A stretch of DNA of 64,000 bases from Enterobacteria phage GEC-3S, in sequence record HE978309; one strand, given 5' to 3'. The translations under genes and the position numbers were made by a program. The notes beneath the pieces were generated by a model. It worked only from the letters and a program-made list of their open reading frames with translations, was not told the DNA's origin and searched no databases. This document shows, piece after piece, positions 49,718-50,857 of this stretch. Each line of letters begins with the position of its first letter. The first letter of the stretch is position 1.

Positions 49718-50010
49718 TAATTAATCTCCAAAAATCCAGCAAGACCTAAACCGATATAAGTCCAGATACCAATAAAAAAGATGTTAATGCTCATGGCAAG
49801 GATAAACCCTTTTAGCGTTTTAGGATATCCAACCCAATATTCCCGACCATCTTCTAACCGGATCAACTTATTGCCTTGCGAGTCCATATCGACTACAACA
49901 TGTTTATTTCGAGATTGCAATAGATATTGTTTTACAATCTCTACACCCGCCATAATAACAATAACGAAAATAAAAGTCCACACAACAAGATTAATGATAG
50001 TCTCAAGCAT
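49717..50010 (-). CDS. membrane protein (97 aa)
   Basis: two predicted TM helices; TAATG-coupled to tk. Confidence 0.5.
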   Translation of the reverse strand: MLETIINLVVWTFIFVIVIMAGVEIVKQYLLQSRNKHVVVDMDSQGNKLIRLEDGREYWVGYPKTLKGFILAMSINIFFIGIWTYIGLGLAGFLEIN

Positions 50011-50221
50011 TTTCTATCACCTCCACCCAATCAGGCGTTTCCTGAAAGACTCCTTCGCCTTCATGATGGTCGCAACCTTTATTGCTGCAATACATCCACC
50101 AATCCCACATTCCCCACGGTAAACGCTGCATATCGTCGTTACAGCAAGTGAATATAATAGGCCAACCACATCTACCACATCGGCAGTTTTCCTTCATGTG
50201 AGCGGTATTAGGCTTCTTCAT
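50003..50221 (-). CDS. Cys-rich small protein (72 aa)
   Basis: start at ATG 50221 (ATGA-coupled); CRCGRCGW...CC...GCDHH. Confidence 0.45.
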   Translation of the reverse strand: MKKPNTAHMKENCRCGRCGWPIIFTCCNDDMQRLPWGMWDWWMYCSNKGCDHHEGEGVFQETPDWVEVIENA

Positions 50222-50412
50222 AGATGACTCCAATATAATCGACATTTACATTTAGGGCAATGCGGTTCTTTAATATAATACCCGTCTGTCTTTGGAACAC
50301 TAACAGGAGCGGTTTTTATATTGTATTCAGTGAAACAACGAAAACAAGTTACGTTTTCTACAGACTGACGTTTCACCCAATCACCGGAATATAGGTCATT
50401 TTTATTTGTCAT
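50218..50412 (-). CDS. zinc-ribbon small protein (64 aa)
   Basis: start at ATG 50412; CFRC...CPKCKC. Confidence 0.45.
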   Translation of the reverse strand: MTNKNDLYSGDWVKRQSVENVTCFRCFTEYNIKTAPVSVPKTDGYYIKEPHCPKCKCRLYWSHL

Positions 50413-50857
50413 ATTCAACCACCACAATGTTAATGTCTGGAGTAGCAATATTAATGATCTCTTCTACACATTCCCACTCAAGGCCACCGATACCGCAACC
50501 GATTTTAGGAATATAGAAAGGCTGTATAGCACCCTCAAAAACATCATTGAGAGACTCAAATCCTTTCAGGATAGCACCATATTCAGCATTTGGACCCGGT
50601 CGGAATTGGGTATAGAGATTCACCCCGCACCAGTTATAACCATTAACTTGATGCGTCCAGACACTAAACCCACCCAGCTTTTCGACCTTACCGCGAGAAG
50701 TTTGCTTGTCAATCTCTAACGCTTGTGGGAACTCTTTCGCGATCTTCGCAGCAATACCAGCGCCCATAGTATGAAAACAATTACAACCATGAATTAAATG
50801 ACCGTTTCCTTGTTTAAACAGGGCGATGAGATCGCCCTTTACAGTATCAATAATCAT
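50402..50857 (-). CDS. macro-domain-like protein (putative ADP-ribose binding/processing)
   Basis: 151 aa; motif HGCNCFHTMGAGIAAKI resembles macro-domain phosphate-binding loop; ATG with SD AGAGG. Confidence 0.5.
   Translation of the reverse strand: MIIDTVKGDLIALFKQGNGHLIHGCNCFHTMGAGIAAKIAKEFPQALEIDKQTSRGKVEKLGGFSVWTHQVNGYNWCGVNLYTQFRPGPNAEYGAILKGFESLNDVFEGAIQPFYIPKIGCGIGGLEWECVEEIINIATPDINIVVVEYDK

Follow-up and report, generated by a model that had tools for sequence, protein, structure and literature searches.

The 64,000-nucleotide stretch of Enterobacteria phage GEC-3S analysed here (sequence record HE978309; hereafter the window) encodes a 151-residue protein with a glycine-rich loop and, next to it, two small Cys-rich proteins. 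The locus raises two questions: whether the larger protein (the macro protein) is an ADP-ribose hydrolase and, if so, of which substrate, and whether the two mini-proteins are its partners.

Genomic setting of the macro gene

The window is part of a Krischvirus (RB49-like, T4-like) genome and is 99–100% identical to Krischvirus RB49; the region of the macro gene and the mini-proteins is kept at 97–99% identity across 56 RB49-like phage genomes. The three ORFs of the original prediction are all present, on the minus strand (Table 1). They are not chance ORFs, since each is conserved in the 56 genomes and has matches in both Pfam and PHROGs. The macro protein matches Pfam Macro (PF01661) over profile positions 1–118 of 118 (E 6.1e-7, 29.9 bits, gathering cutoff 22), mini-protein 1 matches PF23903 (1.8e-23) and mini-protein 2 matches PF23895 (8.8e-34); the respective PHROGs E-values are 5.8e-63, 4.9e-34 and 4.8e-34.

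The block is anchored by vs and tk. Its first ORF is annotated as vs in phages Phi1 and JSE, in which the macro ORF bears the annotation tk.4, and the order vs.1, vs, macro gene, small ORFs, tk is common to the window, T4, RB14, Q7622, CGG4-1 and phiKp_11. The ribosome-binding region of the macro gene comes directly after the vs stop codon. The mini-proteins, which had been described as lying upstream of the macro gene, are downstream of it in transcription and upstream in plus-strand coordinates only. Their coupling is real, with overlapping starts and stops that run from the macro gene to mini-protein 1 and then to mini-protein 2: the macro ORF and that of mini-protein 1 share 11 nt, starting at the mini-protein 1 ATG, and the ATG of mini-protein 2 is in an ATGA overlap with the mini-protein 1 stop, with a GGAG 6 nt upstream. 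An alternative start of mini-protein 2 at ATG 50245, which would give 80 residues, has no ribosome-binding site. The translationally coupled string continues past the mini-proteins into the ORF of a predicted membrane protein, which overlaps the stop of mini-protein 2 by 8 nt and the start of tk by 1 nt, and then into tk itself. The promoter and terminator scan yields consensus matches only; the sigma-70-like match ahead of vs.1 may be an early promoter from which the vs.1-vs-tk.4-...-tk string is transcribed.

Table 1. Features of the vs–tk block in the window, in order of transcription
Feature	Coordinates	Strand	Remarks
Sigma-70-like promoter match, TTGACT-17-TATTAT	51865..51893	-	regB/vs.1 gap; consensus match only
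vs (valyl-tRNA synthetase modifier) homolog	50873..51232	-	phrog_1256 1.8e-33; anchors the block on its upstream side
Ribosome-binding region for the macro gene, with GAGAGG some 9 nt ahead of the ATG	50859..50872	-	Read from the sequence
Macrodomain gene, T4 tk.4/adfM ortholog by sequence and position, 151 aa	50402..50857	-	
Mini-protein 1, 64 aa, PF23903, predicted zinc-binding	50218..50412	-	ATG 50412, stop 50218
Mini-protein 2, 72 aa, PF23895, predicted zinc-binding	50003..50221	-	ATGA-overlap start
97-aa predicted membrane ORF, two hydrophobic segments, phrog_16027	49717..50010	-	
Thymidine kinase tk	49121..49717	-	Pfam TK 1.2e-51; downstream anchor of the vs-tk.4-...-tk block

Fold, family and pocket of the macro protein

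The AF2 model of the macro protein (pLDDT 96.9, pTM 0.91) has the three-layer α/β/α macro fold. A Foldseek search with this model gave 179 PDB matches at E<=1e-3, and the 50 listed are all macrodomains or designs on macrodomain scaffolds. The best are human TARG1 (4.6e-11), yeast Poa1p (1.6e-9) and the DarG proteins of Thermus aquaticus and M. tuberculosis (5e-9 to 8e-9); BT1257 and SCO6735 are also matched. By E-value, Poa1p is nearly as good as the other fold matches. Superposition on TARG1 or DarG gives an rmsd of 2.7–3.1 Å and a TM score of 0.76–0.82 (about 0.78–0.80 for DarG), and on Poa1p an rmsd of 4.7 Å and a TM score of 0.65–0.71. In a phmmer search of the PDB, the best match is the M. 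tuberculosis DarG macrodomain (5m3i; 6.6e-8). The 151-residue ORF is therefore a free-standing macrodomain of the ALC1/TARG1/DarG class, as the original prediction had proposed from its glycine-rich loop. Relatives of the protein occur in 2,733 phage records.

The residues of a predicted ADP-ribose pocket, namely an N-terminal Asp for adenine, an Asn in the catalytic loop and two Gly-rich phosphate loops, are present by alignment. The key positions are D9 (adenine contact), H23, N26, the loop M31–A36, Q84 and the loop I119–G125; the segment of residues 23–39 (HGCNCFHTMGAGIAAKI) holds H23, N26 and the first loop. D9 aligns with TARG1 D20 and N26 with DarG N22. Among 63 homologs, H23, N26 and G120/G122/G125 are invariant or nearly so, as are the loops MGAGIA (31–36) and IGCGIGG (119–125). 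Q84 aligns with TARG1 K84 and with DarG K80, the first Lys of the M. tuberculosis PTKK motif, and 62 of the 63 family members have Gln at this position.

Orthology with T4 Tk.4

By sequence and position, the macro ORF is assigned as the RB49-lineage ortholog of T4 Tk.4. The two proteins are 44% identical in an alignment that takes in 150 of the 151 residues (E 3e-45), are of the same length class (151 residues in GEC-3S, 155 in T4), and share the HGCNCFHTMG and YTQF motifs, the free-standing macrodomain and the location between vs and tk. An identity of 44% leaves room for an altered substrate of the macro protein. Downstream, the two loci differ: tk.4 is followed in T4 by tk.3, tk.2 and tk.1, and in GEC-3S by the two zinc mini-proteins. 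The latter were considered as equivalents of T4 tk.1–tk.3 and rejected, Tk.3 being DUF7202 and Tk.2 and Tk.1 DUF7438, with no similarity to them. The RB49 macro protein is closer to homologs from rV5-like phages (68%) than to any Tequatrovirus version.

According to the accessible part of a 2025 HIDEN-SEQ preprint, T4 tk.4, there named adfM (anti-DarT factor macrodomain), is needed for resistance to DarTG2, as found in a transposon screen, in which tk.4 read counts drop only with DarTG2 present, and with a clean knockout (bioRxiv 10.1101/2025.11.20.689424). The evidence from T4 is genetic rather than a biochemical demonstration of DNA-ADP-ribose hydrolysis. Earlier, T4 lacking both adfA and adfN had stayed DarTG2-resistant, which predicted a further factor such as AdfM (PMC11825919). 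Within the Tk.4 family, protection against DarTG2 is documented for T4 tk.4 only; we infer that the RB49-type protein has the activity and target of T4 Tk.4 and would confer the same protection.

Comparison with other macrodomains

The PADLOC DarG model matches the macro protein (8.7e-15), T4 Tk.4 (1.3e-9) and the PhiKZ AdfM (4.4e-39). The homology to DarG extends over the macrodomain only (PADLOC model positions 3–141 of 329), and DarG (PDB 5m3i, 5m31/5m3e, 7omu) has in common with the macro protein the Asn and the phosphate-binding loops. They differ in two respects: DarG uses Lys80 for catalysis, where the macro protein has Gln84, and DarG carries a C-terminal DarT-binding domain, whereas the macro protein ends at residue 151 without one. 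No darT gene lies beside the macro gene, the neighbours of which are vs and a zinc mini-protein, and a PADLOC search of both mini-proteins gave no match.

A parallel to Gln84 is found in the Streptomyces coelicolor protein SCO6735 (PDB 5e3b), in which Gln85, His24, Asn27 and Gly128 correspond to Q84, H23, N26 and G125, the equivalence of these residues resting on a transitive alignment through TARG1 and DarG (K84 and K80, respectively, in the case of Q84). SCO6735 also matches the macro protein in sequence (phmmer 4.2e-6, profile 5.4e-14) and in fold, although it is encoded on a bacterial chromosome, in a context of housekeeping or of antibiotic regulation, and the macro protein is phage-borne. 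SCO6735 is a lysine-independent, ALC1-like enzyme that cleaves ADP-ribose from thymidine and confers protection from DarT; its Q85A mutant is inactive, and a water-mediated mechanism in which Gln85 is essential has been proposed (PMC9411070).

Another orphan phage macrodomain is gp104 (AdfM) of the chimallivirus PhiKZ, 26% identical to the macro protein. The catalytic Asn is common to both (N23 in PhiKZ AdfM, N26 in the macro protein), but PhiKZ AdfM retains the DarG-type lysine (FPTKD), which the macro protein does not have. PhiKZ AdfM counters DarTG2, strips DarT2-made ADP-ribose from DNA in vitro and is imported into the phage nucleus (PMC13309987). Human TARG1/OARD1 (PDB 4j5r) and yeast Poa1p (PDB 6lfq) are of the same ALC1-like class as the macro protein. 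The TARG1 catalytic dyad Lys84/Asp125 is replaced by Gln84/Gly124 in the macro protein, and of the Poa1p residues probed by mutants (H23, S30 and F152), H23 is kept and position 30 is Thr.

Proposed function

The analysis directly shows the fold of the macro protein, its family and orthology, the synteny of its gene and the residues of its active site. Taken with its relatives, these features make it likely that the protein removes DarT2-made ADP-ribose from thymidines in single-stranded phage DNA. The macrodomain would be made early in infection. A triggered host DarTG2 would lead DarT2 to ADP-ribosylate single-stranded DNA of the phage at the thymidines of TNTC motifs, blocking replication; the phage macrodomain would then grip the ADP-ribose through D9, N26 and the two glycine-rich loops and cut the thymidine–ribose bond, restoring the DNA. 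The macro protein would thus be an orphan, phage-borne copy of the enzymatic half of the antitoxin. Regarding the chemistry at Gln84, a lysine-independent, water-mediated mechanism of the SCO6735 type, rather than that of DarG, is the most likely one. The T4-type AdfM family, whose catalytic position is taken by glutamine where DarG has lysine, is accordingly grouped with SCO6735.

Reversal of ADP-ribosylation as a counter-defence, which had been suggested for this protein, fits the action of T4 Tk.4/AdfM against DarTG2. A protein or NAD-depletion target, suggested along with it, does not: the documented target of the Tk.4/AdfM family is thymidine-ADP-ribose in DNA, made by DarT2. Judged from its T4 counterpart, the macro gene is a real counter-defence gene with a function already worked out in T4, which makes the finding otherwise ordinary. 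Its value lies in bringing the RB49 (Krischvirus) lineage, and by homology the rV5-like phages and many further large phages, into the range of the AdfM counter-defence that was recently described in T4.

The macro protein might instead act on small molecules, as an ADP-ribose-1''-phosphate phosphatase or an O-acetyl-ADP-ribose deacetylase that serves NAD+/ADP-ribose recycling or signal destruction and not DNA repair. PHROG 335 and RefSeq label the family 'phosphatase' (legacy 'phosphatase / A1pp'), Poa1p is among the best fold matches and has in common with the macro protein an N-terminal LIH-x-CNC motif, and at the positions of the H23A and S30A mutants of Poa1p found in the PDB the macro protein has H23 and T30. 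In Acinetobacter phage Aci02-2, a Tk.4-type macro gene immediately follows Prs-like and Nampt genes, and in Sinorhizobium phage phiM7 one is found 1.5 kb behind genes for NMNAT and Nampt; such NAD-salvage neighbours in other phages hint at additional or different substrates. In the window, a search for homologs of Nampt, NMNAT, Prs, Sir2, Nudix and AdfN (gp61.2) found none, and an NAD-salvage context was rejected. Poa1p also superposes worse than TARG1 and DarG. Weak Appr1p phosphatase activity in vitro is common among macrodomains without being their role, and the 'phosphatase' label on the Tk.4 family is probably misleading. DarTG2 sensitivity is the sole known phenotype of the family, and a small-molecule substrate is an unlikely alternative to the DNA-directed activity.

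A protein or RNA substrate was considered as well, in which case the macro protein would erase or tune ADP-ribosylation of host proteins or RNA by the phage's own ModB-like enzyme or by Alt. The phage does have a gene for such a transferase, as predicted: the ORF at 9096-9599 is ModB-like (phrog_832 1e-20; T4 ModB, 33% identity, E 4e-8). Moreover, SCO6735 and TARG1 are also able to remove protein-linked (Glu/Asp) ADP-ribose (PMC9411070). The link drawn to the macro gene was nonetheless rejected; 41 kb separate the two genes, which belong to different gene blocks and have nothing connecting them, and the T4 screen, in the accessible part of the preprint, ties the loss of tk.4 specifically to DarTG2. 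T4 Alt, ModA and ModB modify arginine, and arginine-ADP-ribose is reversed by ARH-type hydrolases; no macrodomain hydrolase is known to cleave the arginine linkage. This reading is extremely improbable.

The zinc mini-proteins

Both mini-proteins are predicted to bind zinc from their residue patterns. Mini-protein 1 has a CxxC...CPxC pattern with C23, C26, C52 and C55 invariant, and mini-protein 2 a CxxC...YCSNKxCxxH pattern with C15, C18, C45, C50 and H53 invariant. They could form one functional unit with the macro protein, for instance by binding DNA or DarT in place of the C-terminal DarT-binding domain of DarG. The overlap of start and stop codons along the three genes would fit such a unit, as would the finding that 14 of the 21 viral loci with a relative of mini-protein 1 have a Tk.4-type macrodomain at most 6 kb away on the same strand, across Krischvirus, Vequintavirus, Mydovirus-like and other T4-like phages. 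Both the macro protein (68%) and mini-protein 1 (78%) of RB49 are most similar to proteins of rV5-like phages, where the two genes are one gene apart. However, T4, where AdfM works, has no homolog of either mini-protein genome-wide: tblastn and mini-family HMM searches of the whole T4 genome found none, the best E-value being 0.004 in a non-coding frame. Mini-protein 1 occurs without a macrodomain in 7 of the 21 viral loci. In GAP32-type and CBB-type phages it lies between an Acb1-like phosphodiesterase and Sir2, with no adjacent macrodomain, and in KB57 after an HD hydrolase, where the macrodomain is not adjacent either. Of the 44 viral loci with mini-protein 2, the 24 that have a macrodomain nearby are all T4-like tk loci, and the remaining 20 have none. 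In addition, the early gene strings of T4-type phages regularly have overlapping frames, and here the overlaps reach as far as tk. One functional unit is thus distinctly unlikely, and the mini-proteins, which had been proposed as partners, are not obligate partners of the macro protein: both are missing from T4, and each is found elsewhere in loci that have no macrodomain.

A search of a large protein collection for homologs of mini-protein 1 returned one frameshifted sequence only. It is conceivable, though very unlikely, that mini-protein 1 is a portable zinc-ribbon adaptor for small counter-defence hydrolases. In RB49, mini-protein 1 would then take over the binding of DNA or DarT, a function that DarG has and the macro protein lacks, and the pair would be a split, two-gene analogue of DarG. 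The neighbours of mini-protein 1 to which this refers are the macrodomain in RB49 and rV5-like phages, the Acb1-like 2H phosphodiesterase and Sir2 in GAP32-like phages, and the HD hydrolase in KB57-like phages.

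Gene organization of the vs.1–tk string

Judged by sequence, the 151-aa macrodomain protein (macro ORF) is a member of the T4 Tk.4/AdfM family, with 44% identity to T4 Tk.4 over the full length (E 3e-45), and its gene is the ortholog of a counter-defence factor already described in 2025, T4 AdfM. The original prediction was correct as an observation and partly correct in its interpretation; the present work adds a family-wide Gln replacing the lysine of the antitoxin DarG, evidence against an obligate role of the two zinc-binding mini-proteins, and a likely lateral relation of the RB49 macro/mini 1 genes to their rV5-type counterparts.

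Genes of the macro ORF region, in order of transcription
Feature	Position	Strand	Order
regB-like	51917-52381	-	first
vs.1	51240-51830	-	after regB-like
vs	50873-51232	-	after vs.1
macro ORF, 151 aa	50402-50857	-	after vs
mini 1, 64 aa	50218-50412	-	after macro ORF
mini 2, 72 aa	50003-50221	-	after mini 1
97-aa ORF, two hydrophobic segments	49717-50010	-	after mini 2
tk	49121-49717	-	after 97-aa ORF

Every gene of this region lies on the minus strand, and the vs > tk.4 ... tk order is shared with T4 (vs > tk.4 > tk.3 > tk.2 > tk.1 > tk). The macro ORF, mini 1 and mini 2 are real, residues 23-39 of the first corresponding to the motif HGCNCFHTMGAGIAAKI quoted in the prediction, and both mini-protein genes, which had been placed upstream, are downstream of the macro gene. 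The proposed coupling is seen as overlapping junctions, which are not specific to the trio and span the whole five-gene string. The mini 1 ATG falls within the macro ORF, 11 nt before its end; the mini 2 start is most likely the ATGA that overlaps the mini 1 stop and is preceded by GGAG, whereas an alternative 80-aa form from 50245 lacks a ribosome-binding site; the mini 2 stop overlaps the start of the 97-aa ORF by 8 nt, and the stop of the latter overlaps the tk start. The tk.4 string could be driven from either of two sigma-70-like matches, one near-consensus (51195-51223 (-), TTGACA-17-TATGAT, extended TG, 11/12) inside the first vs codons and the other (51865-51893 (-), TTGACT-17-TATTAT) in the regB/vs.1 gap.

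Fold and active site of the macro protein

The macro ORF scores 29.9 bits against Pfam Macro (gathering score 22), and its AlphaFold model, built from a 63-sequence alignment, has a pLDDT of 96.9 and a pTM of 0.91. In Foldseek searches of the PDB, the model matches TARG1 (4.6e-11, TM 0.76-0.82), Poa1p (1.6e-9, rmsd 4.7 Å) and, with TM 0.78-0.80 and E-values of 5e-9 to 8e-9, DarG macrodomains from Thermus aquaticus and M. tuberculosis, followed by BT1257 and SCO6735. Among solved structures, the M. tuberculosis DarG macrodomain is the closest by sequence (6.6e-8). Lack of the fold or of the ADP-ribose pocket had been named as grounds for rejecting the macrodomain identity; fold and pocket motifs are both present, so this attempt at refutation failed.

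In the pocket, D9 corresponds by alignment to the TARG1 Asp that contacts adenine, and N26 to DarG N22, the Asn that was mutated in PhiKZ AdfM; the two glycine-rich loops (31-36 and 119-125) show little or no variation among family homologs. Where DarG (Lys80) and TARG1 (Lys84) have their catalytic lysine, the macro protein has Gln84; this Gln is found in 62 of the 63 family members and also in T4 Tk.4 (in YTQF), and TARG1 Asp125 is replaced by Gly124. In Streptomyces SCO6735, which hydrolyses ADP-ribose off thymidine and gives protection from DarT, the lysine position is held by an essential Gln85, with contributions from His24, Asn27 and Gly128 (PMC9411070). The configuration described there is that of H23, N26, Q84 and G125 in the macro protein, an equivalence drawn transitively via TARG1 and DarG, and SCO6735 is a significant match by both sequence and fold; the macro protein thus looks mechanistically SCO6735-like. 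It differs from DarG in lacking the catalytic lysine and the DarT-binding domain, and its gene has no darT neighbour. The PADLOC DarG model (8.7e-15) is matched over the first 141 of its 329 positions only, the macrodomain half, and we infer that the protein would act like the enzymatic half of DarG.

Candidate function and substrate

In a 2025 preprint (10.1101/2025.11.20.689424), tk.4 was the one significant hit from a T4 transposon library propagated on a DarTG2 host, and its clean knockout, for which the gene was renamed adfM, makes T4 DarTG2-sensitive. T4 without adfA and adfN had remained DarTG2-resistant, and a further factor was predicted (PMC11825919). PhiKZ gp104, also named AdfM, frees DNA of DarT2-made ADP-ribose in vitro and relieves DarT2 toxicity (PMC13309987). 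It is a more distant macrodomain, just 26% identical to the window protein. No homologs of T4 gp61.2 (AdfN, the anti-DarTG1 NADAR protein) or T4 NudE were found in the 64-kb window at E<=0.01.

The most likely function of the macro protein is DNA de-ADP-ribosylation. Its gene would probably be expressed early within the vs.1-to-tk string, the sigma-70-like match upstream of vs.1 being consensus evidence only; host DarT2 would put ADP-ribose on thymidines of single-stranded phage DNA, and the macro enzyme would take it off, allowing replication to continue. Fold, residues and orthology come from the present analysis and the phenotype from T4, the activity of the window protein being predicted from them.

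Alternatively, but less probably, the macro protein may act on a small-molecule substrate. The legacy 'phosphatase' label of the family reflects likeness to ADP-ribose-1''-phosphate phosphatases, and Poa1p is a good fold match, although a geometrically poorer one; Tk.4-type genes also adjoin NAD-reconstitution genes in one Acinetobacter and one Sinorhizobium phage, which may therefore point to such a substrate, but no NAD-reconstitution genes were found in the window. Reversal of a phage-made modification had also been proposed. The ModA/ModB-like gene is confirmed at 9096-9599 (-) (RNA-polymerase ADP-ribosylase family phrog_832, 1e-20; T4 ModB, 33% identity, E 4e-8), as a single mod-like gene at this locus where T4 has modA and modB. 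It lies 41 kb from the macro gene and no tie between the two was found. The T4 transferases modify arginine, and the arginine-ADP-ribose linkage is not known to be cleaved by macrodomain hydrolases. The ModB-like gene is flanked, in a T4-like arrangement, by 8279-9034 (-) and 9669-10193 (-), an Srd anti-sigma homolog and a gp56-like dCTPase/NTP pyrophosphohydrolase.

The zinc-binding mini-proteins

Mini 1 belongs to PF23903 (1.8e-23, invariant CxxC...CPxC) and mini 2 to PF23895 (8.8e-34, invariant CxxC...YCSNKxCxxH), both named 'phage zinc binding domain' in Pfam. Neither has a homolog in the whole T4 genome by tblastn and family HMMs, and DUF7202 and DUF7438 genes take their place in the T4 tk.4-tk interval. 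Among mini 2 relatives in IMG/VR, a Tk.4-type macrodomain is just upstream in 24/24 loci with tk (T4-like phages), and no macrodomain was found within 6 kb in the 20 loci without tk, high-GC and jumbo phages included; this distribution reflects inherited synteny rather than a functional link.

For mini 1, 14 of 21 loci have a Tk.4-type macrodomain on the same strand no more than 6 kb away. Distance and order vary: the two genes overlap in RB49, stand one or two genes apart in rV5-like phages and 3.5-5 kb apart in the Mydovirus-like ones, and in other T4-like phages the macrodomain is found beyond tk. In the jumbo phages GAP32 and CBB and their relatives, mini 1 stands between an Acb1-like 2H phosphodiesterase and Sir2, with adjoining Nampt and Nudix genes and no macrodomain in the cluster; in KB57 it comes after an HD hydrolase. 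The mini-proteins had been suggested as partners of the macro protein, and a direct macro/mini 1 partnership would agree with their overlap, but overlapping frames are normal in T4-type early genes and here run on into tk. T4, where AdfM functions, lacks both mini genes, which together with the loci without a macrodomain argues against an obligate role; a required partnership is unlikely. Given the varied neighbourhoods, the absence from T4 and the commonness of overlaps, mini 1 therefore fits a frequent passenger in islands of small nucleotide or ADP-ribose hydrolases.

The Mimasvirus-type mini 1 loci (in locus-own coordinates, GAP32, L003 3515-5909; CBB, L005 3471-5890; L020 5507-6965) look like a dense counter-defence/NAD island, the phosphodiesterase matching Pfam Acb1 at about 6e-16; a Nudix gene comes next in GAP32 and CBB, and Nampt is about 1.5 kb upstream. 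In some jumbo-phage contigs (L025 5731-6156, L074 5743-6174), the PF23903 (mini 1) and PF23895-like (mini 2) domains are not separate proteins but the C-terminal portion of longer ones of 141-143 aa. In the large protein collection mini 1 has only one relative (P0121), which agrees with window 50208-50412 (-) residue for residue over 33 positions and then switches to another frame on this DNA, matching the alternative ORF 50208-50300; hence either this copy carries a frameshift or the metagenome contig was misassembled. RB14 has two additional small genes between tk.3 and tk.2 (L007 2498-2874), the mini 2 homolog RB32ORF111c and ORF110c, which T4 lacks (L001 4032-4426), so the tk.4-tk interval is hyperplastic even within Tequatrovirus.

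Relatives of the region

Over the 1.6-kb stretch, 56 Krischvirus genomes, RB49, Phi1, JSE and kaaroe among them, show 97-99.3% identity; the macro ORF is annotated tk.4 in Phi1 and JSE, and its product is 100% identical to the protein of one RB49 record. Window 50218-50857 has Vequintavirus (rV5-like) homologs in phage isim (L002 3001-3907; macro 68%, mini 1 78% identity), and both RB49 proteins are far nearer to these than to their homologs in other Straboviridae (39-50% for macro). Sequence comparison suggests lateral exchange of a macro + mini 1 module between RB49-type and rV5-like phages.

In Acinetobacter phage Aci02-2 (L012 905-4474), Prs-like and Nampt genes (NARP1-like) are followed directly by a Tk.4-type macro gene, and in Sinorhizobium phage phiM7 (L011 872-5429) one is separated by 1.5 kb from preceding NMNAT and Nampt genes (NARP2-like), which hints at a link between the family and phage NAD+ reconstitution islands.
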